Assembly (NCBI RefSeq): GCF_036588685.1
Contig: NC_086379.1
Coordinates: 71,486,001-71,550,000, forward strand
DNA: 64,000 nucleotides
DNA from: Mytilus trossulus
Lineage: Eukaryota
Direction of reading: 5' to 3'
The notes below the pieces were generated by a model. It ran no database searches. It was given only the letters and a program-made list of their open reading frames with translations, and was not told where the DNA came from. This document shows positions 1,506 to 42,822 of the stretch, in pieces. How positions within the stretch are numbered: position 1 is the first letter of the stretch; each line of letters begins with the position of its first letter. The position numbers were made by a program, and so were the translations under genes.

Positions 1506-1549
1506 ACGTCACTGATGAGTCATTAGTAGACGAAACGCGCGTCTGGCGT
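1506..1549 (+). ncRNA. Minimal type I hammerhead ribozyme in a retrozyme-like repeat (~1335-1583)
   Basis: ACGTCA-CTGATGA-GTC(attagta)GAC-GAAA-CGCGCG-TC-TGGCGT. Core intact, stems I and II pair, stem III is palindromic. Confidence 0.85.
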
Positions 1550-1780
1550 ATTAAATTATAATCCTAGTACCTTTGATAACTATAAAGGTTTGAGTTGTAG
1601 CGACGTAAGTCATACTATCTTCATATAGATTTTTATTGTCGACGAATTGTGAGATAGTCAAAACGTTTCAGTTACTCAGTCAAAGTTTTTACTTTATAAA
1701 AGTATTTATCATACTCCATCTTACATTATTGCTTACTTTTATTCTTGACCGAAGTCATTGAATATGATGTTGCGATTGCA

Positions 1781-1854
1781 TGATGAGTGAGGCATTTAGA
1801 TTTGTTAACCTGGTAAATGATGAGTGAGGCATTTAGATTTGTTAACCTGGTAAA
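1781..1854. repeat. Exact 37-bp tandem duplication
   Basis: TGATGAGTGAGGCATTTAGATTTGTTAACCTGGTAAA occurs twice. Confidence 0.9.
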
Positions 1855-1995
1855 CACATTCTGACCTACTCTATTCATCAAATTATGACTGATATCAACG
1901 CTTTGTTTGTTTGTTGTTACAGAGAGCTTATATTATTTACTGTCACTATATTTTTGTGAACATTCTATGAATATGTGAATAAATAAAGGCAGAAA

Positions 1996-2146
1996 NNNNN
2001 NNNNNNNNNNNNNNNNNNNNNNNNNNNNNNNNNNNNNNNNNNNNNNNNNNNNNNNNNNNNNNNNNNNNNNNNNNNNNNNNNNNNNNNNNNNNNNNNNNNN
2101 NNNNNNNNNNNNNNNNNNNNNNNNNNNNNNNNNNNNNNNNNNNNNN
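1996..2146. other. Assembly gap (N run) next to an (AATAAACG/AATG)n microsatellite
   Basis: Run of N. Confidence 0.99.
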
Positions 2147-5100
2147 AACGAATAAACGAATAAACGAATAAATGGATAAATGAATAAATGCATAAATGAA
2201 TAATCTTTATTCATAAACATTAATTTAAGAAACACGCACTGTTTCTAAAATTCAACACAATGTTGGGTTGCATATACCTTTTAAATTAATGTCATGTACA
2301 TTTTTATACCAACATTTTTAAGAATTTGTTTATTTCATTTGTTGAAACAATGCATGTGAAAATATAATGATGATCCTAACCGATATCAGCTGAGTCTTAA
2401 AAATAAGACAATTAAACAACTGTGGTAATTCTTGCAACTCTCTAAATTTGACAAATGATTATTTTTGCATCAAATCTACATATGGTTATAAATTAATTAA
2501 ATGATAGCAATGATAAATAGTTCAAATCTAAAAAAAAATACTATATTTTTCTTCAAGTCGCCTTGATATCTTATTGCAGTTTTTTTTAGGGTTCGTGTTG
2601 CTTAGTCCTTAGTTTTCTATTTTGTGTCATGTGCACTATTATTCAAATGTTTGTCTGTCCCTCTGATATTTTTCGCCTCTTTTTTCCTTTCCTTTTTCTA
2701 CCGATTATTATGAGTAAAATAAATTTCTAGTATTGGAAAGCACATTTGTAACGCACGATTCCAAAGAATACAGAAATGACAGAAGTTATATCCAAAACTT
2801 ATTTCAATCACTTTTTTCGATGCCAAAGTTTAAAGTTTTTTTCAAATACACTACATAAAGAAAAAAACTAAGTAATTTGCAAGTTTTGTTTTATAAAATT
2901 CGAACTAATACTTGATTGGTTTCGTAGACGTTTTGTCGTAGCAAAATAATATTCCACTGTAATTATTAGTTCTAAGAATAAGAACTCATAAAATTAATGG
3001 ATGACACAAACGTTACAAATTAAAGCAAATTTTTCAAATCAGAATTTCACTAATCAAGAACTTTACTTTTTATTTGTTTTGTTTGATTGAAAAGAGTACG
3101 TTTCATTTATCCAGTAATTTTAAGACATTTTTTAGTTTACCTTATTTCATACTTTTTCTTAAATCTACGCCTATTTCAAGAATATTTAATTACTTATATT
3201 ACAAATTTTAAAATGAAAGATATAAATGCATTGTTTTCCATGTTTCCATTTAAATTTGACATTTAAAAGTCGTCTCTGAAATCTTTCAATAGGCTGTTAT
3301 TTATAAAAATCACATTTTCCCTTTACTTTTATAATTTCTCGTTGAAAAAAAAATGATTTAGTATTGTCCGTTCGAATTTTAATACTTTTTTAGTTCGACA
3401 GACCACAATGCCGAAACTAATTTTACAACACACTTGTCTAGACAATCTGTAAATTTCTTTGTGATTTTTTCATGCGCGATACATGAACATTTGCATGGAA
3501 TACTGTGGTTTAAAGAAATAGAAGTTAACAAAACAATTTTGGTTGAAAATAACTAAAAAATAAACACTATTTTTATGCGGTTGTTGCTGTGTAAACTTGT
3601 TACCTGACTCACAATTTTCCACACATGCAATACCTTCAGGTTATCAGTTTATTTGCCCAGTTTGTTTACATAACATACTTTGACAAACATGTATATGATT
3701 AAACAAGAGGTATTTAATATAGAACATGTCCACTTCAAAATCTGTATGCTTGAAGAAAAACATTGTATATGTTTAGCTTCCTTTTCTTGATTTCAAGTCA
3801 CATGAAAATTTCATAATAACTTTTGAAATGCCTGTTTATAATAAGCCGTTTTTTAAAACCAAAAACTAAAATGTTGCAAGTCTTTTTTTCTAATTAAGTT
3901 TCACGTCAATACTCTAACAAATTAAAAGCAAACATTTCAATTATTGTAAAATTTTTCATAACTTGACACGGAACTACATAAAAAATAATATTAACATCAT
4001 TTATTGCAGCTACTGCGTAGACCATTTTCGATAATGTTTTTTTTTCTTCTAAAACTTTGACTATCACAAATTTACCACTGTACTAGTTTGGTGGCGCCTA
4101 GTGTATAAAAGAATTACCAATTTTAATTCAAAACAAAAAGGTAGCTTATTCATTAATCCAATCGATAGTGTAAAATAACAAGTAAATCAGTTCGAGTATA
4201 ACAGTGTCAGAGTAGAACATGTTAAAAATAACTTGAATGAAAAACATATGAATTATCAAGGGCAAGAAACCGGAAAATTTGAAGAAAGAAAATCATATTG
4301 AAAGCTACTTAGCATTCTTAATACTAACATTGGGTTAACAAAAACTTATCAAAGGTACCAGACATATTATTAAGTTCGCCAGACGCGTTCTTTGTCTTCA
4401 CTATACTCGTTAGTAACGCTCGATTAAAACTGTTGGAAGGCAACATCAAATATGCGATTGTAGATCATGAAAGCATGTAAATAGTAAATTCACAAAAAAA
4501 TACTAAACCCGAAGGAAAATTCAAAACGAAAAGTCCAAATTCAATTGGCAAAATTAAATAATCAAGCACATCAAACGATTGGCTAATAACGGTCAGATTC
4601 CTGACTTGGTACAGACATTTTCTTATGTAGAAAATGGTGGATTGAACCTGGTTTCATAGCGCTGCACCTCTAGCTTGTATAACAGTCACATTAAATTTCA
4701 TTATATTGACAACGTTGTGTAAACAAAAAAAGTCAAAATAGGTACAAATTTCAAGTAATCAGATATTATATATAGATATATGAAGATGCGGTTTAGTGCC
4801 AACACTCTGCCCAAGTCATAATTTGTAAAGGTAAACAATAACAGGTCAAAGCATACTTTAAAAGATTAAAAATGCTCTAAATCTGACGTTTAAAGGATGA
4901 ACAAAGTAACCTAAACATTGATGCAATGGAATAAACTAATTGGCCTATTTCTACTCATATTTCATCATTTCAAAAATTGAAACAAAATTTCATACATTTC
5001 ATCAGTTATCGGAATGTTTTTTTTTCCTTCAATAGTTATCTTTGTCGTGGTGTCTGGTGGTATTAATATCTCTACTTAAACTTCATCATTCTTTAACTCC

Positions 5101-5340
5101 CACTCGTCAATTTAAAAACATATTTGTTTTTGTGTCCTTCGATAAAGAAAAACTCTAAAATGTAACGACAATAAAAGATCATTATATGCTTTTGGTATAT
5201 TTGTTATTAATATCTACCGTATAAAGCAATGAATGGATTGCTTAGTGACTACCTTAAGCGCATCTACCCACATTTAGATAGTTATTTTGAAATAAGTCAC
5301 GGATGCTTGATTCTTCCATCAAATATTTCCCTAAGCTTAA

Positions 5341-10559: not shown

Positions 10560-10889
10560 TAAAAAAGAGGGACGTAAGATATCAGAGGGAGAGTCAAACT
10601 CATAGATTGAAAATAAATTGACAACTTCATAACTAAATATAAACAAACAAGCAAATAATAGTACAGAAGACACAACTAAAGTCTAAGCAACACGAACTAA
10701 AGACTGTGGCACCCGTCGTGTTGCTTATGTTAATACACATCCGGTAAATATTCTAGTTCGGTAGGTCACATTCATGAAAAGGGAAGTGTATTTTAGTCAA
10801 TACATGAGGAACATAAGGAGCATATCCGATGTCATCTGTAAAACGGTTATTCCGTAACGGTCAAATAACTCGTGATGGTGTCCGTTAAA

Positions 10890-11090
10890 AGGAAAACTAA
10901 GAATTGTCTTATCCCAGGAATATATTACCTTAGGCGTATTTGGCACAACTTTTTGGAGTTTTTGGTCCCCAATGCTTTCCAACTTTTTTACTTGTTTGGC
11001 TTTATATATATTATATTTTGATATGAGCGTCACTGCGACGAAACGCGCGTCTGGCGTATCAAATTATAATCCCGGTACTTTGATAACTAT
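10890..11090 (+). repeat. Retrozyme fragment with internally deleted hammerhead
   Basis: Homologous to 1380-1583. Reads GAGCGTCACTG-CGACGAAACGCGCGTCTGGCGT, with part of the core and stem II lost. Confidence 0.75.
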
Positions 11091-11639
11091 ATTCAACTTC
11101 ACCGTTTGGAACTATTGGTTTAATAGCTTTCTTGTGATCAGCCATCCTCTATCAAGGAAATCATAATGTAAAATACAAGCCCTGGAATATATTTTCGATT
11201 GGGGGGTATATACTCCGTATGCAAGCGTTGAATTACATGTATTGTTTTCAATTTTTTAATACGACCTTTAGTTAAAAATAGCGTTCGACACAATAAATGA
11301 CCAAAAAGACAAACCAATTCCATCTCTAAACAGGGTACCTTTTGAAAAAATGCGTATTTGTTTGAATTCAGGAAATGACGTTACGTAATTTCCTATGTCT
11401 TACGAATGAGTATATTTGATTGACAAATCATTCAGGTCAATTGTTTAAATCTAGAAATTATTTGAAATTATTATTTGTGATTTTGTCAAATTAAACACCG
11501 TTGTTACGTTTCTTTTTTGTCTAATATATAGTATGATACTATAAACAAACTTTGTCAAATATACTAATATAAGTATATCAAATATCAAATTTTTTCTTTC
11601 TATATATTTATCATTTAAAATCGGAAATGTATTTTATTA

Positions 11640-16070: not shown

Positions 16071-19000
16071 AAATGGAGACGTTTAAGGATTATTGATCTT
16101 CCTTCTTTCACAAAACATTATGTCATGAATATTTGGATAAGAATACTGACTGTAATCGCCTCTAGTGTTTAGATGGCTAGCATGATCTAATTTAGGAGAG
16201 ATCTAAGATAAAGGAACATTTACCAAAACTCAAAGGATTGAAAGAATAAAACCCATTTCACGTTGATCAGTGAATAGATGACTTTATCCTGTAATTTAAA
16301 AGTTATTAACGATCTCTCAGTACCAGTTGTACTTAAATTGTAGAACTGATTAAATTTCCATATTTAAAACTAAAGTTACTTGCAGCATATAGGTTCCCAC
16401 CTGCGTGATAAAACCTCTTCAGTTGGAAAAATAATGGATTTTATTTGATTTTAATGTCGTTCCCAGAAGACAGTTACCATTAACCGGATTAATGCTTTTC
16501 CATTTAAGCTGAAAATACCTTATTATTAATTAGAAAACTTTTAAATGTCTGTTAATTGGAAAGACAATTGAGAGTTTAGACTATGCATATAAATACTAAA
16601 TTACTTCAAAAATAAATGTTTGGCTTGAAACCATACTTGTAGCTATTAGACATGTATGGGATATACATCAATTGTACGGAGGAGGACACATGTTTTGTTA
16701 CTTAAATCTTCTTTCAATTATTCAAAATTATCTACAAGCGGGAAAAAAGATAATGTTGCTTGGAATATTCCAATTATGAATGTCTAGAAATTAAAGATTA
16801 CTAAAATGTATGAATTATATATGCAAATGTTTCCTAGTTTATAAACATATATTGATAAATCAGTGTTCATATTAATAAATAATATCTTTAATGTAAAGAT
16901 AGAAATGCTTATATCAATATCAATACGTATTTTCAGGGGAGGATCCAGCCTTCGATGACAGGTATGACAGTTTCACCAAAGCATGAAGACAAAATGCAAC
17001 TATCTTAAAAGTCACTTCATTCCGAGTTGGTTGGGCGTCACTGGTAAGTCTTCTGTGGACAGCGCGTTTCTGGCATATTGAATTTTAAACCTGATGCCTA
17101 TTGTTATTCTTTTGTATTGTAGTCCTGTAATATTATGTTGTCATTTTAATGTTTTAGTTAACATTCCCATTAAAGTGCAAGGTTTGGCATTCCACAAAAT
17201 CAGGTCCAACCCACCATTTTTTTTCTTTAAAAATGTCCTGTACCAGTCTGGAATATTGCCATTGATGTATTAAAGTTCTTTTTTGTGTGTTACATTGTGT
17301 TTCCGTTGTGTCGTTTGTTTTCTCTTGTGTTTGAGTGTGATTTCACATTATTATAAGACGTGTCACGGTACTTTTCTATTCCAAATTTGGTATATTTGTT
17401 ATTCTCATCGGAATTTGTGTTATGCTTAGTCCGTTTCTGTGTGTGTTAAATTTTTATGTTGTGTCGTTGTTCTCTTCTTATTTTTAATGTGTTTCCCTCA
17501 GTATTAGTGTGTTACCCCAATTTTGTTTTGTCCATGGATTTACGAGTTTTGAACAGCGGTATACTACTGTGGCCTTTATGTGTTTAAGTGATTTTCCTGG
17601 TTACTTCCTACATATATCGGTTGGAAAGCTGCATTTTCTTCTGGGAAAAAGGAAGGAAAATAATCATACACAAATAAGATTAAAAAATGACTAACAAAGG
17701 CCGAAACGATAGTTTAAAAGTACTTTTAACTCTGTTGTCGGTGATCTTATCTCATAAACACATGCTCCCCAAACGTCTTTTCGGTTTTTCGATCTTACAA
17801 TTACGGTAAATACCAGTATAGAATTAAGAGTCTGAACGAAACAATTAAATTTTAAATCCCCTTTCAAAATGGCTTCCTTACACTTTTTGTACGTATATAA
17901 GAAATAAGAAGCTGTAATAGGATTGCCAATAATACAATTATCCACCAGAGACCAATTAATGACGTAGATTGAGAAAAAACAATAGGAAACAGAACTACCT
18001 TAAAAAATAAAAAAAAACATACCCTATGATATATAAAATGTTTACATATTTTTTAAAGCATTTCACGTTTTCCTCAAAGTAAATTTGTAATGTAATATAT
18101 TTGTCTTTATGAAATTGACATAGTCTAACACCGATCATTAATTAAGTGTGATAGTTTGCAAAGTTTAAACTGCAATTGGTTGGCAGACTTTCTTCATACC
18201 TGTTTTACTAGCGCTTCATTGGGAATTATGTATAAAAAGCCAAAAATAAGTCATGAACCTACTTAGGTATTTAGACCAATAAATAAAACAATATGAAATT
18301 AGTTCGTGCGGGAAATCTATACTTTAATAACTATTAGTATTAATGTAGAAATCTCTGTGTTCAAACACAATACAGCACTGTCTAACATAGCATTATTTTC
18401 AAATAACTTCAGTTATAAAAACGATTGGCACTGAAAAAATACCGGGCTGGGAGATGAACACGAATAATTAAACACATTTAAAATCAAAGAGACAAGAAGT
18501 GTTTTTAACAACTTGGGTAATTCTCTAGAGTAGAAGTTGTATTGGTTTGTGTTGTCAAAATGATGTCGTATAATCTTACCGTATGGTTTCAGATATGGAT
18601 TCTCATAGCATTATTTTATGGTACATTTTATATTGCATATTGCTTTTTAAAAAAGCTATGATACAATATAACATACTTTAGAATTCGGGGTTCGTGTTGT
18701 TTATTCTTTAGTTTTCTATGTTTTGTCATGTGTACTATTGTTTTTCTGTTTGTCTTTTTCATTTTTAGCCATTGCGTTTTCAGTTTGTTTTAGATTTACG
18801 AGTTTGACTGTCCCTTTGGTATCTTTCGTCCCTCTTTTAGAATAGTGTTTTGACCAAAATGCATTTAAATCTTCTGGAAAGACAAATCATGGATTGAAAT
18901 TATATAAATTGCAAATATGAACAATGTTAAAGTTTTCATTTCGTTCATTGTATTGTACATACATCAGGCCGTAAGTTTTCTCGTTATAATTATTATAAAT

Positions 19001-19983: not shown

Positions 19984-22900
19984 ATAGTTATATATATATA
20001 TATATATATCTTTAAAAAAAACACCTATTATAGCTTTAATGTTACATGTACGAGTAACTGTAACTTGTAAAGTCGTTTCTGCATTAAGTTCTCTTACCAG
20101 AAAACAATAAACAAAAATATGCTTTTGTCGTTTTTCAATTCTTATTAGAAATCTGCATCAGATGACAGCCATTTTATATCTCAAGAAAATTTAATCAAAC
20201 ATACATAAATAAGATAAAGAGACCTAAATGCGTGACTTCGAATCCCAATCAGAACACATAAACGTGCAAATCAAATCATGTTTGCATTTACTGATTGAAA
20301 AATAATAAAACTATGAAACGAACGAACGACATGTTCCTAACCTTTACACCTCAATTTTCATTTTATTTCATTAAATATGTGACTAAAATGAAATCCTAAA
20401 CTTGTATCTTTTATTTTAAGTGCCATTTAGTGTACCATAGATCAGTATGCATACACATATACTATGCACAAGCGATTGAAAAAAGGTAAAATATCTGCGG
20501 TACTCTTGATATTTTACTTAGAGTATTTCTTGTCCAAAATAATTATCTCTTTTACAAAAATTAATGTCGAATATTCGTTAATAAGACGACTATCCAACGG
20601 CATAGAAAAACCAGAAAAAAAATCATTATCACTGTACTAGTATACATATTTTTAAGGAGTCAGCTGAAGGACGCCTACGGATGCGGGAGTTTCTCGTTAC
20701 ATATAAGACCCATTGGTGGCATTCGGCTGTTGTCTGCTCTGGGTTGTTGTCGCTTTGACACATTCCCCATTTCCTTTCTCAATTTTATCAATTAATCAGG
20801 AGTAATCAACAACAATGTTGTTGTACAATATGTACAGCTATAAGCAGGGCTTTTTTTTTACACAAAACTAGTTGCAAATAAATTACCTAAGATCTGACAT
20901 GACCATAAGACTATATTATAGACAGAGATAATAGGATACAAAATTCAACACATATAAAGGTTTTTATCCTATAACAAGACCTGAGTCCAAGGAAACTAGT
21001 GCGCCTTGTGTATCAAATCCTCTATATCTCGATCAGTAATATGTCAAACGGTACAATGATGACCATACGATCAAAACTAGTTCAATGAAACCACTTAACT
21101 CTGTAATATCTGTTTTTAGTTTGTTCCTTTAAAAGCGTGTATTCTGATCATATATCACATCGAATAATTAGATAGACAATGGCCCACGGAGAAAGAAAGA
21201 AATATCAATTTCCAACTATTAACACGGAAAACATCAACTAATGTAGCAATTTAGACAACATTAAGAAATAAAGTCCAATTATAAATGATTAAGTCTCATT
21301 TGAGCAGTTTGTTATTTTAGTAAACATACAAGAAACTAAAAACACGCAATATCAATTATGTTAAAAATCCCTCAAATAGGTAGATCGAATACTAAAAACA
21401 CTTATGGCAACAATCTTACTGCACCAGTTCAGTATTTCAGCAATTTATTTCTCTACAGTAATGCTGGTGGTCAAATGTTTGACATTTAAAATTTAAACCA
21501 AAGGTCGTAGAGCTGTCACGACTGAGGACGAACAATGGAAAAGTTAACGTCAGCGTTATTATGTCTCTGGTGAGGATTATCGTAATGCCAATTATTCCTC
21601 ATCTTATGTTTAAAAAGCAGTGCAAAAAACCAGAGCTATGCATGAGGGAGACACATTCTTGGATTTAAAAATATATCCGTGTTGATAAAATATTTTGATT
21701 TGGGCATTACTGTAGCAATATATGGCATCTAATATCCAACAACTTCGAAATTGGAGATATAGTTTTTTTTAAAAGCGGTTGAAAAATCTGAGTTGCAATT
21801 ATCATAATCTTCTTTCTGGTACAAACAAATAAAACAATGTAGTTAGATTATGCAAAACCACTAAAAGCTTATTAAATGTTTGTATTTATTTCAAATGCTT
21901 TTAAATGATTGTTGAGCATAGATTGTTCCTTTTATATGCATCTGCTATAGCTTCTGAATAAGATTATGTTACTAAAAAGTAATAAAATAATGTAGAACTA
22001 AAGTTGGCCATCATATTTTATTCATGTACATAACTGATTAATATTCTAAAAATAACTCTGTACCATTAACAACAAATAAAAAACAATGTGATAATTTTAA
22101 GTACTCTAGTATTAGAAATAAACAAACAATATTATTCATCTTTTGAACATAAAAGAAAACCGTGAAAAACTCCGACGGTTTATACGAATATGACATATTT
22201 ATCACCTTCACTGAAAATTTGAAGTCCTACGAATCTTTAAAATAGCTAACGCGCATCTGCATACAACACACCAAAGTAGACATTACAATAAACAATCTAT
22301 CATTGTAAGCATAGAAACCACATTTTGATTGCAAAACTGCAAGTAGGTATTAAGAAATTTAGAAACGAGACATACATGTATATGGGTCATAAAGAACAGT
22401 ATTGAATGAACTTTCCAAATAACAAAATGAACATGTATCCTAGGACTTTTTGTTTCTCAATAAAGAAGTTCCATGTAATATGTCTACCATCAATAACAAA
22501 ACTTTGATGGTTTGACTCCGTAAGGAAAGCTATCTAGTGACACAAGTAGCGTATCATGACGGTTGTTATTTAGCAATAGATGTTATTTTTGTTACAGTTA
22601 GTTGTCCACTTAATAAACAAGTTTTCCCAATCGGACTTTAAAGCTGTGGTTACACAAAGGGTATTTATAAGCTATGGAAGCTGAGTCTGGCTTAAGGATA
22701 CAATTGCTTTATAATGGGGGCAATACCAGTTGTACAACAATAGTTGGTTAACATACGCGGGGAGTTAGTGTTAATATGTTATATTTGTCTGATCACACTT
22801 CACCAAGGTTTGTTCCATAGAGCAGTACATATATATTGCAAAGTGGTGCAACAACCCATAACCAGATGTAGGCAGAAAATCGTATTCTATCCTATATGTT

Positions 22901-27206: not shown

Positions 27207-27608
27207 AACAAAAAAATAAGTAATGGCTGCTTTCTTCGAACATTCACATTTTCAGTGTGGTTGGGTTTAACTTGTTAGCTGGTATCCAAGCCTGCCCATA
27301 ATATGAGACAGTGGAGTAACACCACAACATAACAACGAACATAACTTCCGTTCACATCCTGTACAAGCACCGTGTCAAATTTAAAAAGACTTTCAACTTA
27401 TACTGTAACAAAAAATAAATTATGGCTGCTTTCTTCGAACATTCACATTTTCAGTGTGGTTGGGTTTAACTTGTTAGCGGGTATCCAAGCCTGCCCATAA
27501 TATGAGACAGTTGAGTAACACCACAACATAACAACGAAAATAACTTCCGTTCACATCCTGTACAAGCACCGTGTCAAATTTGAAAAGACTTTCAACTTAT
27601 ACTGTAAC
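27207..27608. repeat. Recent ~199-bp tandem duplication
   Basis: ATGGCTGCTTTCTTCGAACATTC...CAACTTATACTGTAAC occurs twice with only a few substitutions. Confidence 0.9.
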
Positions 27609-29576
27609 TTTTTTTGGCCATGACTATTCAATGTAATGTTTCCTGTTTCGATCTGTTATTTATTGACAAAAAGTAAAATCACAAAAGTACTGAACTCAAT
27701 TCAAAACGGAAAGTCCCTAAACAAATGTCAAAATCAAAAGTACAAAAACATCAAACGAATGAAAAGCAACTGTCATATTCCTGACCTGTTACAGGCATTT
27801 TCTTATGAAGAAAATGTTGGATTAAACTTGGTTTTATAGTGCTAAACCGCTTAGTTGCACGACAGTCGCATCAAATTCCCTAATATTGAAAACGAAACCC
27901 ATATTATTTTTTTTCCAATGAGACAGCAAAATGTTCTTTACGAAAGAAAAAAAGGAAATCACAATCACTAAGTGGATGAAACCCATAATTCTATTATGTT
28001 GGCTTATGACCATAAGTGAAGACAAAACTGCACGGACAGTTTAGTACATATAAATGCGCATAGAAATATTAAATCTTTTCAATAATTTTAAAATAAGGAA
28101 GTGAGGTATGATTGTCAGGCAATAATTTTCCAACAGAGAACAAATAACATATATGCTAGCAAGTATATATAGTAACCATGTGACATGAAACAATTCGAAA
28201 ATGCATAGGCCTGACTCATTCTCCCCATTCAGGAGAAAACAATAGTACATAAAGTTAAAATTGTAAAAAAATATAATCAAAAGGCTAGACTCATCTGATA
28301 AAGTACTCATTTCGTACATTATAAAAATACTGATTGGCTCCTTACTTTCCTGTAACGAGTTTATGTTTAATAATCTACCCTCTTTTCATATCGTTGACCA
28401 TAAATAAATCTGTATAACTTTTATAGATAATGATTCGGTATTCTAAGTTTATGACTAAGCGTGATAATTGCAAAGGAAGTCACATTTGTTGTACTTTTTT
28501 GTAATTTCCTATTATTACTTTAAAGTCCAATAAATGTTCGTGCTATACATATGATATGTGTACTTTGAAATTCGTGTAAACAGTGTCCCTTGACTGATTT
28601 TGTTTATGCTATTTACCTATAAGAAACAATATGAGGGATGGTCAGAAGTTTTATTTTTTATTCGGTTTTATTCTTATTTTCCATCTTAATATTTCCATAA
28701 TAATAGCATTCAGTGAGTTACATTGTAATACTTAATCTAATTATAAGTACTTCAAGTCATTTATCATAATAGCTAAATGTAATTCGAAATTATCAATGCT
28801 TGCATCAATTAAGTTGTCATTCAAAATTATGTCCATTAAAGAAAACTAAAAACAACTTAAGAACGTTTGTTTTTTTACTGAAATTCAATACACCATTTTT
28901 TTTTTCATTTTTAACCTCTTTTTATTCAGGAAAAATGGGCATTTTAAACGGTGAAGTTTGACTGACAGCAACTGTGCAATAGCTTCGGCGCCGCTCAAAT
29001 AAATTAAATGCTTTTCAAATTGAAAGATTTAAAAATCGCGATGAATTTGAATTCATGTTTTAAGACTTTTCCCGTTCACGAGTTACGCTTTTGATAGATT
29101 AAAAACGACAATCATATTATTTCTGTGGACAACATATGGATGTTTCAGCTGTTCGTTCGGCCAATGTTTTTTAAACATTTTATGTTGTAACTGGTGACAA
29201 AATGGATGTTAGATATTTGCTAGTTTTACCATTACCGTGTCGGACCTATATTGATAGACTGTAAAATAGGCAAAGAACGTGACAGACATGAACGCACCAT
29301 ACATTTATATGATACAGCAATGTCATTCCCATTTATCTATCTTCTTTGAAAGACCACTAATTATTAATTTCAAAACACAGAAAACCCGATTTGGTGTCAA
29401 TTTTATATCAAGACTTAACAATTTATATGGATTGAAAGCTCACGGCTTAACGGCTATTTAAGTTCATGAATGTATCTCTGTATTTAAAGCTAGTTTTTTT
29501 AAACAAAATCGATGAATACAAAGTTTCCAATATGAAGCTTTCAATAAGTTTGAAATCATATTTAAAAATGTGTATT

Positions 29577-29940
29577 AATAAAATTAACGGTACCAATTTT
29601 CTTGCACCAGATGCGCATTTCGACAATACATGTCTCGTCAGTGATGCTCGTGGCCAAAAAAAATGAAATCCAAAGCTTATTTAAAAGATGAAGAGCTATA
29701 TTCCAAAAGGTCCAAAAGTATAGCCAAATCCGTGAAAGGAATCAGAGCTTTGCATGAGGGAGATACATTCCTTAATTTATAATAATTTATAATATTTTGT
29801 AACAGCAAATTTTAATAACACAAAAAAATTGTATTTTCATGCCAGTACCGAAGTACTAGCTACTGGGCTGGTGATACCCTCGGGGACTTATAGTCCACCA
29901 GCAGAGGCATCAACGCAGTGGTAGGAATAAAATTAACGGT
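29577..29940 (-). mobile_element. Complete retrozyme-like monomer (~349-nt unit plus 15-nt terminal redundancy)
   Basis: AATAAAATTAACGGT repeated at 29577 and 29926. Contains the hammerhead. Flanked by AAAAATGTGTATT and AAAAATCCGTATT (11/13 match). Absent from the paralogous sequence near 35780. Confidence 0.8.
29604..29647 (-). ncRNA. Minimal type I hammerhead ribozyme (second subfamily)
   Basis: Minus strand GCATCA-CTGACGA-GACA(tgtat)TGTC-GAAA-TGCGCA-TC-TGGTGC. Confidence 0.87.
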
Positions 29941-31329
29941 AAAAATCCGTATTGTTGAAATAAGTATTTATTATAAAAACATTTAAATGAGCATACTAAT
30001 AGGTTTTACTTTTTACTGTTTTTGTAAGTGATAGTTTTTACCCAAAGAGATTCAACGACTAATATATACCAATAATAATCTAGTTGAAAAAAGAAATAAT
30101 ACATTTAGTCAGATAGGTTCAATTCTGAAACCAAAGTTTATTATTTTTATACTTATATTACTTGATGAATTGAGACAATCATGTCAGACAATTGATCTTT
30201 TTCAACTTGTTCTTATTATGATGAGTTGTATTATATAGTTATCTTGGTTCCATTTATAGCAATTGAAGGCCTAAACAGCACAACCGTTTTATTGACGCCT
30301 ACGCAGTTTTTCACATCAATAGTTTTCCTACAGAATGAGCAAGTAATAGTTATCAAAGGTACCAGGATTATAATTTAGTATAAATAACAAGTAATCTTGT
30401 CGCAAGAAGTGTATTATTTTTCTTTTTACGTTTTTGTTTAAAATTGATAATACCTCATTAATAAATATATTATCATTTGTACGTCTACTTTTAATTGATG
30501 CTAACGATATTTGTATCGTCGTTAAATATCACAAACAAAGAAATGAAAATGACTCAGTTAATCAAATTAAAAGATCGAAACACCGAGAAAACCCAAAGAA
30601 CAGATTAGTTTCTCGACTTGTAATGAAAAATTATTAAAAGTTTAAGTATGAATAGTGACACTTTAAAAAACAATATGTATTCCATCTTAGTTATATTTCC
30701 AAATTATTGTAATAATTAAGTCCTATTGTCCGGTTCGTCCTCCTTTTTAAAATCATTTTTTATAAACACAATTTTCATTATTATAAATTAAAGCAAACAG
30801 CTATTCAAATATGTGTCACCTAGGCCACCGGTTTGGAAACATTCAAGTAACGATTGAATTTTTAATAATAGGGAAGACAAACTGTAACGATACTAATCGT
30901 AAAGGTTTAAACTGTTGTATGAGAAAAAAAATATAAGCACGTGCAATACACACAAAACTACTTGTATACGACAATTGAGAAATATGCCATAACAAAATAT
31001 GAGAAAGAGGTTACTAAAACATTATGGTTTGGTTGATGTTTTAGAGGTCTCTCTTCAATACCACTTTTGATCCATATAGAATTCTAACGGTATAATCTAT
31101 AAAAAGGACTTTGATTAATCATTACACTTCGGATGGTTGTTTTAAATGAAACTATTTTGATTGAGTAGCATTCATTTAAAATGAAATAAAGAAAAAACAA
31201 GCATGACATTCGAGCTCTTTTATACATAGATTTACCTTAGCTGTATTTGGCTACACTTTTAGGAATTTTGGTTCTTAATGCTCTTCAACATCGTACTTTA
31301 TTTGGCCTTTTTAACTTTTTAGGATTCGA

Positions 31330-31371
31330 GCGTCACTGATGAGTCTTTTGTAGACGAAACGCGTCTGGCGT
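31330..31371 (+). ncRNA. Hammerhead ribozyme with shortened stem III (retrozyme fragment ~31225-31410)
   Basis: GCGTCA-CTGATGA-GTCT(tttgt)AGAC-GAAA-CGCG-TC-TGGCGT. Confidence 0.75.
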
Positions 31372-31479
31372 ATATACTAAATTTAGTCCTGGTATCTATG
31401 ATGAGTTAATTTATACAACAATCACTCATTTCTGCCTTTTAAGCAGATTGCGCGGGTTACTCTATGGTAATATTATAAG

Positions 31480-31821
31480 TTATATGGTTCGCCACTGACC
31501 CCATACGGATCCATAGAGGGTTAGTAAAATCCATAGGGGGTGAGGCCGGAAACCGAGTCTCTTATGAATTTTATTCACCCTCTATGGATCCGTAAGGGGT
31601 CAGTAGTTAACTGAATAACGAATTTATCGGACGCTGGACTTTTTCTGCGGCGTTTTGTTGAAAAATAAACAATGAAACACCACAAAATTAATAGATGACG
31701 TCGCCATTAACGCGTCACAAACTCCATATGAAACTTACTAACCCCATACGGTCTCATAGGGGTCACCACGTGACGGCGTTTAACCAATCACAACGTGATA
31801 ATTCATCTGTGGTCCGATAAA
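31480..31821. mobile_element. Bipartite palindromic non-autonomous element (possibly Crypton-type)
   Basis: Long hairpin 31494-31604 followed by a second inverted pair TTTATCGGAC/GTCCGATAAA (31623, 31812). Interrupts sequence paralogous to ~23840. Confidence 0.55.
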
Positions 31822-34800: not shown

Positions 34801-36926
34801 ACGAGCAAGGAACCAGAGATCATTCTATAATTTAAAACTTAATATGTGTAAATACAATATTTTGATTTTGGCATTCCTGTAGAAATGGTATGGTGTCTAG
34901 TTTCGATTAACTTCGGAATCGAAGTTTGTGTAAAAAGCAGTTAAAAAATCTGAGTTCTAGAATCAGAATATTCTTACTGGTTCAAAGAGTAGTATAAGTA
35001 TTCTATAAACTTAAGTTTGCCGCCATATATTTTTTAATGTAAGTGACATGAAGTTGAAGTATCCATGATGTTCTAGTACTGTAATTACCCTTTACCATTA
35101 ATAACCAATAAAAAATAATATGTGATAATTTCAAGCATACAAAATCCAAAAAAAATAATAAACTAACACACAGTTTGAACATAAAAAACCCAATCAGACG
35201 GTTTAAATAAAATGGAAGATTTATCGCCTTCAAACTGACAAAACTTGGAATCAAACGAATCTGAAGAATAACTAACAGGCACCTGTCTATAACTTTAATT
35301 GATTAAATTTTGATACAGTACCATTCATTTAAATTGATGCGAAGAAGAATGGTAAGCTAACAGGGTCGAATATCTGTTTTATAATCATATTTAGTGAACA
35401 TACTCGGGGATTAAGCGTTGAAAGGTTATCTCTTATCACAGTTGACCAAGGATTAGCCCACAGAGCAAAGTAGTACAACAACTCAAAATCATATTTAGGC
35501 AGAAAATCTTTACTACAGTGTGTTATTTTTTTTCAAATTCTTGAAAAATACAACTGCCCTTAATTATAAAATGCCTACTCATGAATACATCATATACACA
35601 GGCAAAATTTTTTCAGTTTAGCATATTGTTAGAGATAACATTAGGCACACACTGTCTCTGTTATATTCACTGTAATGCCTCATCTTAAGTAGTGATATGT
35701 TTAGTTTTTAACTTTTTTTAAACAAAAAAGAATAATACAAAATATCCAATATAAAGCTTTCAATACATTTGAAATCACATGTAAAAATATATATTATAAA
35801 TTGTTGAAATAGTTATTTATCATAAGAATATAAAGGACAGAAGTAATTTTTTTGCTTTGTATTGTGTATGTAAGGATAGAGATTTAACAACAAAGTAATA
35901 TATACATATCTCTAATTCAATTGAAAATAAAAAATATTGCATCCCATCAAATAAGTTCAATTCTAAAACCATAAGTTTATTCTTTGTAAATATATCATAT
36001 ACTAGACCGAATAATCTGGTTCTTCGTGTTTATTTTTATTATTTTATATTTCCTATTTATCATTTGGATTTTTTTTTAACCGTGTCAAAAAAAAATATCA
36101 AAGGTCAAAATTAGTAAAATAAGATATAGGAAGGGTGAAATATGGACACAGGCGACAGAAAATTTGGTCTGATCATATATAATATGGTATCATTATATTG
36201 TCTCTTTGACACATTCATCATTTCCATTTTGCCGTAGACTCTAAACATATTGATTTAAAATCTACTATTTTTTTTAGCCCGTTATCTATTGGGTATACAA
36301 ACTTGAATATCTTAATTTGGATAGTTAGCAGATTAGTTGTTCACTGTTTGGTATTTAACATTTGTGTTGGTTATTTTGATCGGAACCTTGCTTTGGTCGT
36401 TTTGAAATACGACATTGAGGTTGCAGACGACAAAAAATAAACGAGAAATGAATCTTCGTAACAGCTATACATCCAATAAAAATGTGTGATTCAATTTTCT
36501 TGAAATTTTAAATTTTGGTCAACAGGTCAAAGTAATTACTTTATAAAAATATGTTAAAAATTAAACGAGCCAAATGAATTATTGCTGAATTGTGGGATAC
36601 TTCCCTAAGTAGGATTGTCAGTTTTCCTGCCGAGGGTGTGTGAGCCTCTTCAGGCTTCCATCATCGTTAACAATGGACAGCCTCGATGTATCCATTAGAA
36701 CGGAAAGAGCAAGCAGGCGTTAATCATCGACAATCAATTAGCCAATCAATTAACTACTCATACCTTTATCCGTAAAATTAAAATTGTTTATCCTTAAGTT
36801 GCTTTATAACTATAATCAAATAAATACAATTGAAAATGGAAATGGGGAATGTCTCAACGACCCGACCAACAAGAGCAGTAAAAAGTCCTATGTTCATAGC
36901 TTGGCAAGGGGATCAAAATTATTTTA

Positions 36927-37643
36927 ATGGTCGAACAATATAAATCTGACATGGCTGTCATTGCCGATGATATAACTTCATTGCATGTTGTTAACAGGAG
37001 TATGGTTGATCAGCTTGAACAACTACAATGTGAAAACTTGAGGGACAATTTGATGTTTTTTGGTATCGAGGAGAAGGAGGGCGAAGACTGTATTGATAGC
37101 ATTAGAAACATATGTGCTTTATCTCTGGAAATTCGAGAACCAATCGAAATAGCATCTGCCTTTAGGATGGGAAAGAAATTCATGAGCAAGTCGACTCGGA
37201 ATGTGCGTAAGCCGCGCCCCATAATTGTCAAATTTATAAAACGTCAACAAAGGGACACTGTACGTCAAAACTCTCGCAAATTAAAAGAGTCAACCATTTC
37301 AATTTCTGAACAATTTCCGAAAGCTATACATGAAAAACGCAAACTATTATTTCCTGTGTATAAAAAAGCAAAGGAGGCAGGTAAACGAGTTTCGTTTAAT
37401 AAAGATAAACTTTTTATTGATGGTGAGCAGACTGTTGTTAAATCTAACGAGCTAGTCAAAATTGCACGTCGTGATCAGTCAGGTGATAGAATGTCGGATA
37501 CAGCGTCGGGTCCAGGGTTTTCAGTGGCCGAAAAAACACCGAGCGTCTCAAGTATAAAACCTAGTAAATCTTCAGTGAGTAATGGCTCGTCTAGTGGATC
37601 TCGCTTTGAAGTGTTAGCAGATATGCACACAGGTACAGACTAG
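36927..37643 (+). CDS. LINE ORF1 (coiled coil plus RRM-like, Transposase_22-type)
   Basis: Motifs LRDNLMFFGIEE, AFRMGK, PRPIIVKF, ISISEQFP, RVSFNKDKLFIDG. Confidence 0.85.
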   Translation: MVEQYKSDMAVIADDITSLHVVNRSMVDQLEQLQCENLRDNLMFFGIEEKEGEDCIDSIRNICALSLEIREPIEIASAFRMGKKFMSKSTRNVRKPRPIIVKFIKRQQRDTVRQNSRKLKESTISISEQFPKAIHEKRKLLFPVYKKAKEAGKRVSFNKDKLFIDGEQTVVKSNELVKIARRDQSGDRMSDTASGPGFSVAEKTPSVSSIKPSKSSVSNGSSSGSRFEVLADMHTGTD

Positions 37644-37676
37644 GACACATCGAGAAGCATCTCCTTTATTAACTTT

Positions 37677-40600
37677 TTGTATTGGAACATTAATGGTGGT
37701 TTACATGATAAACTTAATGAGCCAAATTTTTTATCTTACATTAAAACATATGATATTGTTATTTTGTCTGAGTGTTGGATTGATAAGTCATTTGATGATA
37801 TTGTAGATGGTTATATTTGTAAGCCAGTCCCATTACTAAAAAGTAAATATAAACAAGGTGGTGGACTATATTTGTTAATAAAAAAATGTTTTGCAAAGTA
37901 TGTTGAAGTAGTTGATATTCAGAATGATACAATTATATGGCTCAAGGTTTCAAAGAATATATCAACTTGTGGGTTTGATTATTTTATTGGATGTGTGTAT
38001 TTGCCTCCTGCCTATTCAAATTATTATAAGATGTATAATTGTGATTTATTCTATGATTTGTTAAATTCTGTTGAAAAATATTCATCAGAAACGTCAAGAG
38101 TATTTTTACTAGGTGATATGAATGCAAGAACTGCTATAGTTAATGATTTTATAATAAATGACAATGTATGTGGCCCAATTTTTGATAGTTTCAACCATAT
38201 TTTTGGGTATTTAAGTGACACAAATCTACCAGTAAGAAGAAATCCAGATCAAAGTACTAATGAGTTTGGATTAAAATTGTTAAATCTGTGTAGAAGCACT
38301 GGTCTACGTATTTTGAACGGTCGGCATAAGGATGGCTTAGCTAATGACTATACATTTTGTGGTTCCCGGGGAATGAGTGTTGTAGACTACTTATTGGCTC
38401 CATATGACTTTTTACACATTATAGACCAGTTTATTGTTTGTAACTTCACTTCTTTTAGTGACCATGCGCCTTTACATGTTCGCTTGCGGTGCATATTGAA
38501 CGATTCACAAGAGCCTAAGCGTAACAGTGGTACGTCAAACAACTCATATGATAGTTACCGATGGAAGGAAGAGCTAAAAGATCAGTGTTATGAGTCTTTA
38601 ACTTTAAACAGTGGTTCACTTAGCCAGATAGTATTTTCTGATATTGAAAAATCCCAAGATGGTATTGACAATTACGTTGAATCGTTTACTTCTAATTTGA
38701 TGAACATTATTTCACCATTCTTTTGTAATTCACATAGTTCAAATAATATTTGTGACCGTACCCGTAGTAAAACGACCCGATATAAAGATGACAAACCATG
38801 GTTTAACTACGAGTGCAAAAGACTTCGATCTATCTATACTAGTTCTTTGTATACATTTAATAGAGACAAAAATGTTGAAAATCATCAAATATTAATTATG
38901 TCTAAAAGACAATACAAGCGTTTAGAAAATAAACTAAAACGAAAATATAAGCGTCAAGAGGGTGATATGATAGCTACATTGCGTAAAATCGACCCAAAGA
39001 AATATTATAAACTTTTTCAAAAGAAGAGAGCCAAAAATTCTGATGTGTCACTTTCTGAATTCTTCGAACATTTTAGAAATTTGGTCACAAATGATGGTAT
39101 TAATGTGACAGTCGAAACTCCAGAGACCGTTTCCGACACAACATATGATGAACTTGATCAAATTATTACACAAGATGAAATTTTGAAGTGTATTTCAAAC
39201 CTAAAACGTGGCAAAAGTCATGGTATTGATGGTACATTTAACGAGTTATTCATTGAATTTAAGGATATTCTGCTACCGTTCCTAGAGGAAATATTCAACA
39301 AGATATTAGCATCAGGACATTTTCCGAAATCTTGGGCACTCGCAGTGTTAATTCCTGTTTTTAAAAAAGGCGACTCGTCCGATCCATCGAACTATCGTGG
39401 AATCAGTTTAGTCAGTAATTTAGCGAAACTATTTACATCTATTATAAATTCAAGACTAATTAAATGGTCTGAGAATAATGATATTATTACAGATGCGCAA
39501 TTTGGATTTCGCCCGGGTAGCAGCACTGTTGATGCAATTTATTCTTTGTTGACACTCGTTCAGAAAGCACTTTTCAAGAAAAAACGTTTATATTGCTGTT
39601 TCGTTGACTACAAACAGGCATTTGACTCTGTAACCAGACTTAACTTATGGTTATAACTATCAAGAGTTGGTATAACAGGCAAATTACTTTCTGTTTTAAA
39701 ATCAATGTATTCTACAGTAAAAGTATGTGTGAAAGTTGATGGTTTTTATTCTGAGCAGTTTACAAGTTCAGTTGGTCTTATGCAAGGGGAAGTTCTTTCT
39801 CCTATACTTTTTTCGTTATATGTAAATGACTTTGAAATGGAATTTCTACGTAATAGTAATATACCATATGAAGTGCAAGACTTGTCATTATTTTTACTTA
39901 TGTATGCTGATGATATGATTTTATTTTCTGATTCAGTTATTGGCTTGCAAGATATGTTAGACACATTATTATTATATACTTGTAAATGGGGTTTGACTGT
40001 AAACATTGCCAAAACAAAAATTATGGTATTTAGAAACGGAGGTTTTGTAAAAGACGAAGAAATTTGGTATTATGATGGCAATGCTATTGACATAGTGGAT
40101 GAATTTTGTTACCTTGGTGTACTGTTAAATTTTAACGGTAAATTTGTTAAAGCTCAAAAACATTTAGCTGAGCAAAGTAGAAAAGCTGTTTTTGGTTTGA
40201 AGTCGAAGGTTTCGTCATTGTATTTGAATGTTTTTACATATTTGAATTTATTTGATACTTACATTAGCAGTATTTTATGTTATGGTTGTGAAATATGGGG
40301 CTTCCATAAAGCTCCAAATATTGAAAAAATACAACTTGATTGTTGCAAAAACATATTAGGTGTCAAACAATGTACAACAAATGTTATGGTTTATTTTGAA
40401 TTGGGTAGATATCCTTTGATATATTTTAGAATGTACAACATAGTGAAGTACTGGTTCAAATTATTATCCACAAGCAATTGTATTCTTAAAAACTGCTACA
40501 GGGAACAACTGTATAATTTCTGTAATATTAGAAGCAGTTGGATTTATCAACTACAACAATTATTATTTAACTTGGGTTTAAATGAGATCTGGTATAACCA

Positions 40601-41096
40601 AGACAATTTGATTATTGATACAAATTTATTATTATTTGTAAAAACAAGGATATATGATCAAGCAAAACAGACTTTGAATGATCAACTGAACGTTTCATCT
40701 AAGTGTTATTTATATAAATATATTGTCAATAATGTATGTTTACAGAATTATCTAACTAAACATATGAATTTTAGAGTGTATTTAACTCGCCTTAGATTGT
40801 CATCTCATAATTTGTTTGTTGAAGTAGGCCGTTATCATGGAGTAAATAGGTTTGATAGAAAATGTACTCTTTGTAATTTGAATATCACTGAAGATGAATT
40901 CCATTTTGTTTTACAATGTGAAAGCTATAGAGACTTAAGGAGACAGTTTATTAAACCTTATTATTATAGACGTCCATCGTCGTTCAAATTAGTGCAACTT
41001 CTCAGCACTGAAAATGTAAAAGATTTGCGTAATTTGTGTAAATTCTTGTTTAATGCACATAATCATAGGACCAAACTGTTATTGGTCAATACTTGA
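37677..41096 (+). pseudogene. LINE ORF2 (AP endonuclease plus RT) with one in-frame nonsense codon at 39654-39656
   Basis: EN motifs WNING, LSECW, GDMNAR, SVVDY, SDHAP. RT motifs YRGISL, QFGFR, FVDYKQAFD, GLMQGEVLSP, YADD. C-terminal CTLC...EDEFHFVLQC. The two track ORFs are in the same frame (LWL*LSRVG). Confidence 0.92.
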
Positions 41097-42477
41097 TATT
41101 TATTTGCTTCTCTGATGTATTATGTTATGTTGTGTTATAGAAATGTATTTGTATTTATTGCACTGATAAGCATAATGTGCTTAAAGTAATAAAGAATTGA
41201 ATTGAATTGAATATTTGAATGCGTTTAAAGAATTCGCTTTGCCGAATACTCCTGTGTGAAAACGACCAAGCAGAGGCATTGACAAATGTCTACCGCCACG
41301 AAGAAACAGTCAGTATTCCTCGAAAATCTCTAATTTAGGAAAAAAGAACAGTAGTAAGTATCAACTATAAAATACTTTGCCAAAGAAATCTTTCATCTTC
41401 TAACAGCGGAAATCATGAATAAAAAGGTATAACGAACGATAAAACAATAGTTGATACCAAGTGGGCAATCAAATTGCACAAGTAGAAAAAAAGAGAGAAC
41501 AGACAATATAATGGCCGAACCAAAAACCAGCAAAAAGAAAAAAAGCAATAACAAAACTCTTCACAGTAAACAAAAAATAATAACTAAAAAACAAACCCAA
41601 CAAAATCATTCGGATTCCAGAAATTGATAAACAAATAATCGCATCGATCATACAATAGTTTCCGTTTTCAAATTAGTAGTTAGATATTTTAATTACAAAA
41701 TGTATTGTGAAAATGTTAGAGCAATGACCGAATACGTTTGTTTACATCACTTGTGGACATTTTAATGAGATGGAAAGGTCTTTGTTTTTTTTGTTTTGTT
41801 TTGATGACTTTAATCGACCTTCGATATTTTCTATTTTTTATCTAGATAATGAATGAATAGTTGATTTGGTTTTTTTTTCCATTAAACTGAGGCCTGACGA
41901 TATTTCTTTTATTATCCTCCTTTTGACAGATATGATATTATGTTTATTGATTTCATATCATACCACATATGACATCGTTCATCAGCTGCATACTAATATA
42001 AACTTGTGGATTCAAGACATGATTCTCGGAGTAATCTCAAGATATGTTTTAAGCCAGTGAAGTCACTTCTAATCACACATAATCATGTAAAATATCACTG
42101 CGGTTGATTGATTTCATGAAGTGATATATAAATATTCCATGATTATTATAACAATAATTCAGGGCAAAGAACCGAAAGTGTATAAATAGGTCAATAAAGG
42201 TCCTATTCTACTTGATAGTACTCTCAGATATATTATTACTATTTACAAACGCTAAGGTATTGCTAATATAATTCGTAAATACTATTTTGGACAACGCAGA
42301 GCAAAGAAATTACAATATTTTTTGAAATACTAAGGAAGAGACGCTTGTATGCGTGACTTTTGGGAGTCAGCTAATATTTAAGGTCATCCATGTATCAAGC
42401 ATGTGAAAAAAAAAGTCTATTATAGTTGGTAAAAATCCTTCTAAAGTGGAAAAAAATACTTATTGTTTTTTCATTTA

Positions 42478-42822
42478 TATAGTAATCTAAGGTAACAGGA
42501 TGATAATTTTGTACGCCAGACGCGCGTTTCGTCCACATAAGACTAATCAGTGACGCTCATATCAAAATATTTATAAAGCCAAACAAGTACGAAATTGAAG
42601 AGCATAAAAAGTGTTTCCAAATACGGCAAAGGAAATATGTTCCTCTGATGAATAAATCCTTAGTTCTTTGAAAATTCGAAGTTTTGTAAACAGGAAATTT
42701 ACAAAAATGACCACATAATTGATATTCATGTCAACACCGAAGTGCTGACTTCTGGGCTGGTGCTACCCTCGGGGACTAAACGTCCAACAGCAGTGGCATC
42801 GACCCAGTGGTGTCAATAGTTA
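42478..42822 (-). mobile_element. Retrozyme-like monomer with core-mutated hammerhead (42513-42556)
   Basis: Homologous to 29577-29940 and 1335-1583. The core reads CTGATTA instead of CTGATGA. Confidence 0.75.

Follow-up and report, generated by a model that had tools for sequence, protein, structure and literature searches.

The closest described systems are the non-LTR retrozymes of Mytilus galloprovincialis, in which about 5000 type I hammerhead motifs, grouped into two similar families, are carried by repeats of 350–390 bp (PMC7229834, Cervera and de la Pena 2020; cited here, like PMC4209133, PMC6765202 and PMC4792442, from the part of each text that was available). A cloned genomic mussel repeat cleaves co-transcriptionally at ~0.1 per min, and circular RNAs of the mussel retrozymes are abundant (PMC7229834); the published circRNA sequences are GenBank MN642551–MN642576. 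Most type I motifs of invertebrates cleave as monomers, and no conserved motif of animal retrozymes reveals the retrotransposon that mobilises them (PMC7761336).

Here we analysed 64,000 nucleotides of Mytilus trossulus DNA (the window), for which an earlier note had proposed a scattered family of hammerhead ribozymes in two subfamilies, A and B. That description is right. We conclude, with a probability of roughly 0.87, that the motifs are the 3′-end type I hammerheads of a dispersed, mostly 5′-truncated and transcribed repeat of 350–355 nt, likely the published mussel non-LTR retrozyme.

Hammerhead motifs in the window

All eight positions named beforehand carry a motif, with small corrections: 1506, 11027, 17035 and 31330 on the forward strand, and 4375, 21420, 29604 and 42513 on the reverse strand. 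A profile built from four copies finds those four again, together with 11027 (E = 2.6e-8), 4375 (2.7e-5), 17035 (3.4e-5) and 21420 (0.48), while the best hit of the same profile in the reversed window has E = 3.1. The weakest of these, 21420, has separate support from a 126-nt match of 67% to the B copy (E = 2.2e-10), and a further B-like stretch lies beside it at 21614–21670.

The type I core (CUGANGA, GAAA and an NUH cut triplet, with three helices and helix I open) is present at 1506, 29604 and 31330. The motif at 42513 departs from it at G8, where the change to U described beforehand was confirmed at position 42545. The other four are broken: 11027 is indeed a deletion derivative, and the copies near 4375, 17035 and 21420, described as decayed, have disrupted or lost cores. 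Only 1506 exceeds the gathering score (34 bits) of Rfam RF00163 (Hammerhead_1). The 42513 motif stays below it at 26.2 bits, 31330 is reported under RF00008 (24.9 bits), and 29604 gives no RF00163 listing at E up to 10. Core and helix layout are the same in RF00163, newt satellite 2 and axolotl retrozyme hammerheads.

The helices measure 6, 4 and 2 bp and are accompanied by a 4-nt palindromic loop, which is the canonical metazoan type I form of PMC4209133 and not the ‘minimal’ one of the earlier note; the minimal form is without helix III (PMC4209133). Helix II of subfamily A, given as GUC/GAC, has 4 bp, GUCU/AGAC; in 1506 it is closed by an A-A mismatch. Helix III of 31330 had been given as ACGCGCGU and is in fact ACGCGU, two bases shorter. 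This is a private deletion: 31330 belongs to a third sub-lineage, A2, whose distinctive flanks are common to L001 and L002, and both of these retain the 8-nt palindrome.

A ninth piece, overlooked in the first reading, holds the tail without a hammerhead (Table 1). The copy density, which had been called notable, is not exceptional, as four other repeats in the window are present in 6, 8, 8 and 10 pieces against eight here. Near-intact motifs number three in 64 kb, compared with 0.2 expected from the published count, a mismatch that counts against the reading favoured here.

Table 1 Copies of the hammerhead repeat and its 5′ domain in the 64-kb window
Feature	Position	Strand	Hammerhead; predicted cut	Remarks
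5′-truncated A1 copy	1352..1584	+	1506–1549, near-intact; after 1543	RF00163 35.3 bits; alignments
Decayed A-type copy	4341..4472	-		Core disrupted
5′-truncated A1 copy	10893..11092	+	11027	Lacks 13 nt of core and helix II
Decayed, strongly truncated A-type copy	17030..17110	+		Core disrupted
Old B-type remnant	21390..21514	-		Core, helices II and III lost
Full-length subfamily B unit	29575..29946	-	29647–29604, intact; between 29610 and 29609	349-nt period plus terminal redundancy
Tail-only A1 fragment	30346..30380	-		94% identity to 1549–1583 over 35 nt
5′-truncated A2 copy	31226..31409	+	31330–31371, core intact	87% identical to L001 across 172 columns; helix III 2 nt shorter
Full-length subfamily A1 unit	42478..42822	-	42556–42513; between 42519 and 42518	337 nt here; 7 nt terminal redundancy
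G+C-rich (59%) conserved 5′ domain	42730..42814	-		Long stem with inner hairpin, then UUCG hairpin

Compensatory change and the palindromic helix III

Between A and B, 12 of 12 pairs are kept although 9 of 24 paired positions differ, as the proposal of compensatory changes had it. Both partners change in four of the 12 pairs, spread over all three helices, and the core is invariant except at N7. When the changes were placed at random, every pair survived in 232 to 1866 of 2,000,000 trials, a figure that describes one A/B comparison and not a covariation test across many lineages. In a seven-row alignment that excludes 31330, whose length differs, and the four copies with a broken motif, 69 of 72 cells are paired, against 17–43% in slid controls; all four two-sided changes derive from its single B row. 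Subfamily B has one intact copy in the window. The minimum-energy fold of the isolated motifs is not the hammerhead, which is a further point against the favoured reading.

The palindromic character claimed for helix III is upheld: the 8-nt palindromes are perfect and survive a two-sided change. The suggestion that the motifs cleave as dimers fares less evenly: such palindromes make dimer cleavage possible, but a requirement for it is unsupported, because the cloned mussel repeat cleaved without a tandem partner (PMC7229834). In its one-pair helix III and palindromic tetraloop, 31330 resembles the amphibian motif that depends on dimers (PMC7229834). Unlike that motif, the family as a rule has a helix III of two pairs, the form reported as monomer-cleaving in invertebrates.

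These features bear on a reading that we consider very improbable, namely that the repeat is a retrozyme-like family different from the published two, or one whose main mode of cleavage is as dimers within tandem transcripts, A and B being unable to cross-react. Besides the surviving palindromes, it draws on predicted helix III duplexes of -13.3 (A/A) and -10.5 (B/B) versus -5.7 kcal/mol (A/B), on a predicted weakening of helix I in A/B crosses from about -5.9 to between -0.2 and -2.5, and on the presence of A2. A monomer, however, needs the outer two pairs of the palindrome anyway, no tandem partner is described for the cloned genomic repeat that cleaved, and the published description is matched in genus, size, type and two-family structure (PMC7229834, as far as the available text goes).

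Anatomy of the repeat unit

Non-coding repeats of ~350–355 nt carry the motifs as their 3′ ends, and the window holds two full-length copies of this unit. The unit spans ~355 nt in A and 349 nt in B, with 36–38% G+C; the A1 value is reached once an 18-nt deletion, a gap relative to L003, is filled from other copies. The two full-length units share 66% identity over 338 columns. There is one type I hammerhead per unit, and size (~170–400 nt), G+C (<45%) and non-coding character fit those by which metazoan non-LTR retrozymes are recognised. No ORF of at least 100 aa lies over any copy, no ORF was found beside any copy in the window, and a search for a tRNA-derived head on the unit returned 0 genes.

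The copies are all solitary and mostly 5′-truncated, and no 350-nt period that would indicate tandem arrangement occurs in the window. Among A-type copies the 3′ ends fall close together, at around +36 to +47 relative to the cut (~40 nt), and the 5′ ends lie anywhere between -44 and about -300. Two copies, 29604 and 42513, exceed one unit; the former repeats its own tail (29572–29597 against 29921–29946, 22 of 26 positions) and is missing from a paralogous site near 35800, which thus represents an empty site. Near 34170, another candidate empty site gave a poor alignment and was not counted. The duplicated 21–36 kb blocks yielded no conserved frame for host exons. An 8-nt direct repeat (31219 and 31410; chance ~6%) flanks the 31330 copy, and a 10-nt repeat with one mismatch, of a kind that random pairs give in ~6–8% of cases, flanks the 30346 fragment; no such repeat, as a candidate target-site duplication, was found at four other copies.

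At the other end of the unit lies the G+C-rich 5′ domain, with its B equivalent at 29925–29841. A and B agree here in 30–34 of 40 columns, as against 28 of 40 in the hammerhead and 19–27 elsewhere. Its 8-bp UUCG hairpin (A, 42749–42730; B, 29860–29841) keeps 8 of 8 pairs between the subfamilies through two two-sided and two one-sided changes. No Rfam family matched the domain, and folding of the whole unit is weak (z = -1.8 for B, -1.2 for A). Within the A domain, a stretch resembling GACGAAAC in antisense was rejected as a second hammerhead, having no canonical core and being absent in B.

Pattern scans of metagenome contigs returned four loci, each matching the window repeat beyond the motif and probably representing mussel DNA in those assemblies. 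Scans of prokaryotic genomes with the A and B patterns gave none, and the single match among viral contigs is an unrelated phage hammerhead (58% G+C, no match to the window). Separately, a remnant at 14060 has no relatives in viral contigs and no Pfam match; an atlas search gave a weak helix-turn-helix lead.

Transcription of the family

Reads on the unit were present in all three RNA runs (5275 of 8,710,588, 2674 of 12,728,340 and 5852 of 8,252,136), that is 0.02–0.07%, counted family-wide at 80% likeness and not per genomic copy. Two of the runs show strand bias, and in them first mates fall on the forward strand at ~2:1 over the hammerhead and at 5–6:1 in the 5′ domain. By the usual library convention, the family RNA is then mostly hammerhead-sense. 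Read depth drops to zero beyond 42470–42829. The head-to-tail joint from 42821 to 42485 was crossed by 301, 56 and 363 reads in the three runs, and 213 reads of run X21 pass from the 5′ end into a B-type tail. Among the matches listed, up to 658 of the ~769 X21 reads at the 5′ point enter the element's own tail, with no ORF. No pile-up of read ends was seen at the cut site, and the joint also occurs in two contigs of run X16 that are probably genomic; circles can therefore not be told apart from uncleaved tandem transcripts by these reads.

In X21, 2490 of 2605 reads carry G8; the hammerhead core that 42513 has lost is therefore retained in the family. We find it scarcely credible that the repeat is an inert satellite or SINE-like element whose hammerhead is a decayed relic or chance fold. 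The broken core in five of eight window motifs and the lack of visible cleavage ends in the RNA reads would suit such an element; against it stand the nine paired positions that changed with every pair kept, the A/B core conserved outside N7, G8 in the family reads and the missing tRNA-derived head.

Comparison with Penelope-like elements

The repeat might instead be part of an autonomous Penelope-like element, namely its pseudo-LTR or 3′ end, the copies being 5′-truncated insertions of that element and dimer cleavage taking place in tandem Penelope transcripts. We regard this as unlikely, though it has several points in its favour. Polarity anchored at the 3′ end with 5′ truncation, and a palindromic helix III, suit Penelope hammerheads (PMC4209133, PMC6765202), which share with the present motifs the type I topology, the palindromic helix III region and the occurrence as single dispersed motifs in 3′-anchored truncated copies (PMC4209133). 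Penelope-like elements are also very abundant in M. galloprovincialis (PMC4792442).

Penelope minimal motifs differ in being without helix III and in having a helix II of 7–8 bp, a helix I of 4–5 bp and an extra base after A9 (PMC4209133), none of which occurs here: the helices are canonical, and G10.1 directly follows A9. They sit in the repeats that border a reverse transcriptase-endonuclease ORF (PMC4209133), whereas the window copies flank none. Two independent copies from different subfamilies share a common 5′ start point, and the X21 reads at that point return to the tail, not to an ORF. The window does contain decayed reverse transcriptase remnants, which we take to be Penelope-like, but no copy adjoins one. 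Separately, the retroelement reverse transcriptase at 45408–47816 finds its best NCBI-named matches among Mytilus proteins (M. edulis, M. galloprovincialis; identity up to 93–100%), in line with the window being Mytilus DNA.

Discussion

The repeat is likely the published mussel retrozyme family, matched by description and not by sequence; a search of full-text literature for a 15-nt motif gave no match. Both share the genus, type I hammerheads, two families, a unit of ~350 nt, low G+C, non-coding character and transcription, as well as head-to-tail joints and the more-than-unit copies that the model of PMC7229834 predicts. The hammerhead copies in mussel are thus likely for the most part already known, having been published in 2020 with two families, cleavage and circular RNAs. 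The window copies differ in being solitary and mostly 5′-truncated, while retrozymes are defined as tandem repeats, and in including a third sub-lineage, A2; the common 3′ end and conserved 5′ domain are not mentioned for the mussel retrozymes in the available text of PMC7229834.

In the cycle that we propose for this retrozyme, head-to-tail copies would be transcribed, and the hammerhead would cut after GUC (A) or AUC (B), releasing unit-length RNA that a host ligase may close into a circle. The reverse transcriptase of an autonomous element would then prime at an A/T-rich site ~35–45 nt past the cut and read back across the re-joined hammerhead. Premature termination would leave 5′-truncated copies, a full lap would give copies slightly over one unit (29604, 42513), and solitary copies would decay afterwards. 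Anatomy, polarity, transcription, head-to-tail joints and the filled and empty site were seen here, cleavage and circles come from PMC7229834, and the priming site, template form and mobilising enzyme are those that we infer.

More tentatively, and with more doubt than belief, we suggest that copying from the circle may start at one fixed priming site ~40 nt past the cut, that the conserved G+C-rich domain immediately beyond the head-to-tail joint, with its covarying UUCG hairpin, may recruit a Penelope-type (Naiad-like) reverse transcriptase, and that A and B may have diverged too far to complement each other as dimers.

The window also hints that the published copy number, which rests on a fragmented assembly, is too low. 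Mechanistic handles on the mobilising retrotransposon are offered by the shared 3′ end, by the insertion longer than one unit with its empty paralogous site, and by the conserved 5′ domain. If fixed priming and a recruiting domain hold true, the missing recognition element would be named, and the mobilising partner of animal retrozymes would be pointed to.

Hammerhead motifs and compensatory change

All eight hammerhead motifs claimed by the earlier note were found at their positions, four on each strand. A profile made from four of them and searched for the remaining four matched those at 11027 (E 2.6e-8), 4375 (E 2.7e-5) and 17035 (E 3.4e-5), and weakly that at 21420 (E 0.48), which was confirmed by 67% identity to the B copy over 126 columns. 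The reversed window, used as a control, gave no match below E 3.1, and the Rfam type I hammerhead model placed one of the eight motifs above threshold. The full core is kept at 1506, 29604 and 31330; the last of these had been described as intact or near-intact, but its helix III lacks two bases. The G8-to-U mutant in motif 42513 (at 42545), the deletion derivative at 11027 (13 nt deleted) and the decayed state of the copies near 4375, 17035 and 21420 were likewise confirmed. Subfamily A helix II, earlier given as GUC/GAC, comprises four pairs, and subfamily B has only one intact member within the window. The motifs had also been termed minimal; judged by PMC4209133, where the canonical layout is 6/4/1-2 bp and the minimal form is without helix III, they are canonical.

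The proposed compensatory change between subfamilies was upheld. With A represented by L004, an outside locus, and B by 29604, 9 of 24 paired positions differ while 12 of 12 pairs are kept, and the sole core difference is at N7. Randomly placed changes kept all pairs in 232 to 1866 of 2,000,000 trials. In an alignment of seven motifs (six distinct; 31330 and four broken copies excluded), pairing is present in 69 of 72 cells, against 17-43% for slid-partner controls, and two-sided changes occur at 4 of 12 pairs, spread over all three helices. All four come from the single B row, and thus represent one branch rather than a phylogeny-wide test.

Separately, a viral contig (IMG/VR; L005, 990-1050) carries a type I hammerhead of phage origin that is unrelated to the mussel family; its helix III is long and stable, and it lies a short way upstream of a gene start.

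The repeat unit and its transcripts

Each motif sits close to the end of a longer repeat. The two full-length units share a common start point and 66% identity over 338 columns. RNA reads mapped over 42380-42900 fall to zero depth beyond 42470-42829, and a head-to-tail joint (42821 to 42485) appears in 301, 56 and 363 reads of three RNA runs, as well as in 2 contigs of run X16, whose type is not on record. Restoring an 18-nt deletion in the A1 copy brings the A unit to ~355 nt, and subfamily B has a period of 349 nt. Unit G+C is 36-38%, and no ORF of at least 100 aa overlaps any repeat copy in the window.

Features in and around the hammerhead repeats (window coordinates).
Feature	Position	Strand	Remarks
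Full-length unit, A1	42478-42822	-	hammerhead at 3' end
Full-length unit, B	29575-29946	-	hammerhead at 3' end
Ninth piece	30346-30380		tail only
Near-intact retroelement	44148-49717	-	three overlapping ORFs, split terminal repeats
LINE-type element	36900-41096	+	ORF1-like frame, then endonuclease + reverse transcriptase frame
Weak Rfam SECIS_1 match	51406-51472	+	E 0.85, below threshold
Weak Rfam SECIS_1 match	19855-19919	-	E 1.1, below threshold
Homologous to SECIS-like matches	14620-14695	+	
Inverted-repeat elements, 110-230 nt	31494-31604, 52561-52788, 63536-63698		
T-rich 3' ends, Penelope-like repeats	15210, 19329, 20788, 60542, 52874		

A-type 3' ends, four outside loci included, cluster ~36-47 nt beyond the cut site (a few A/T-rich alignments reach 54-66, and 21420 drew no partner in this comparison); A-type 5' ends spread from -44 to about -300 relative to the cut. 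The B copy carries its tail sequence at either end (22/26 matching), and a paralogous site near 35800 is without it. A B-type tail follows the unit 5' end in 213 reads of RNA run X21, so the redundancy is the element's own and the B copy is longer than one unit. Flanks are common to 31330 and outside loci L001 and L002, and distinct from 1506, L003 and L004; the first three form a third sub-lineage, also found among loose read ends.

The unit's first 85 nt have a G+C of 57-59%. Comparing two sequences, A and B, identity per 40 columns is 30-34 in this 5' domain, 28 in the hammerhead and 19-27 in the middle, and an 8-bp UUCG hairpin in the domain shows two two-sided and two one-sided changes. 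The domain matched neither an Rfam family nor anything in a tRNA search.

At 80% likeness, the share of reads lying on the unit is 0.061% in X21, 0.021% in X24 and 0.071% in X22; these reads come from the whole family, almost none matching the A1 copy at 99%. First mates are biased to the plus strand in X21 and X22, indicating hammerhead-sense RNA under the usual library convention, and are without bias in X24. In X21, 2490 of 2605 reads carry G8. Ends of the mapped RNA reads pile up at no listed position, so cleavage is not seen in them, and reads cannot separate circles from uncleaved multimers.

Copy density and neighbouring elements

The hammerhead density, earlier called notable, proved ordinary for an abundant mussel repeat: its end is present in 8 pieces, and four other repeat families in the window show 6, 8, 8 and 10. 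From the published count, 0.2 intact motifs would be expected per 64 kb, and three near-intact ones have a Poisson P of 0.001, a value qualified by the fragmented assembly behind that count and by the choice of this window for its hammerheads.

The near-intact retroelement, which we take to be DIRS-like from its ORFs and terminal repeats, has a reverse transcriptase-RNase H ORF with 93-100% identity to several Mytilus proteins; for the reverse transcriptase at 45408-47816 the best named matches belong to two species, Mytilus edulis and M. galloprovincialis, and several of them reach 93-100%. The endonuclease/reverse transcriptase of the LINE-type element lies in one frame, broken by single stops. 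Old segmental duplication blocks occupy 21390-36000 in three to four copies (62-86% identity), each carrying different repeat insertions, and no conserved reading frame was found in them. The segments 24492-25164 and 25899-26571 are 99.7% identical, reflecting either recent duplication or an assembly artefact. The three inverted-repeat elements are probably MITEs or inverted repeat pairs, and account for weak Rfam miRNA matches.

The SECIS-like matches show an AUGA...AAA...UGAU pattern and follow closely, on the downstream side, decayed reverse transcriptase remnants that are Penelope/Naiad-like and belong to two distinct families. SECIS-bearing Naiads are described in clams and spiders in PMC8557442, and mussel Naiads might also encode selenoproteins.

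Proposed mobility and relation to published retrozymes

We infer that the repeat is best read as a non-autonomous retroelement. The hammerhead would cut tandem transcripts, a host ligase would circularise the cut RNA, and the reverse transcriptase of another element would copy it back. From genomic copies that cross the cut site and stop ~40 nt past it, it can be deduced that the template is not the cleaved linear monomer but either a circle or a multimer left uncut, with priming at a favoured A/T-rich position. Several Penelope-like repeat families and the retrozyme subfamilies have T-rich 3' ends finishing TAT or TTTAT, a weak hint at shared target priming.

Cleavage as dimers through the palindromic stem III, as previously suggested, is favoured by predicted 8-bp helix III homo-duplexes of -13.3 and -10.5 kcal/mol (A/B duplex weaker, -5.7; helix I also predicted weaker across subfamilies). 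However, PMC7761336 describes monomer cleavage for invertebrate hammerheads whose helix III has two pairs, and the closest intact motifs, 29604 and 31330, lie on opposite strands.

According to PMC7229834, M. galloprovincialis has ~5000 type I hammerheads, which fall into two similar families and lie in 350-390-bp repeats. Circles were abundant there, a genomic repeat that had been cloned was cleaved at ~0.1 per min, and Penelope-like elements were put forward as candidate mobilisers. All features measured in the window fit these retrozymes (small ribozyme-bearing mobile repeats giving circular RNA), a likeness by description; a motif search of paper full texts gave no match. PMC8557442, PMC6765202, PMC4792442 and preprint 10.1101/721605 give further context. 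The mussel and bivalve retrozyme text available makes no mention of a common 3' end or 5' domain, which supplements or figures may show.

The hammerhead family is thus real, functional-looking as a family and, identified by description, very probably already published. What it would add to mussel retrozymes is a candidate priming site and a candidate recognition domain.
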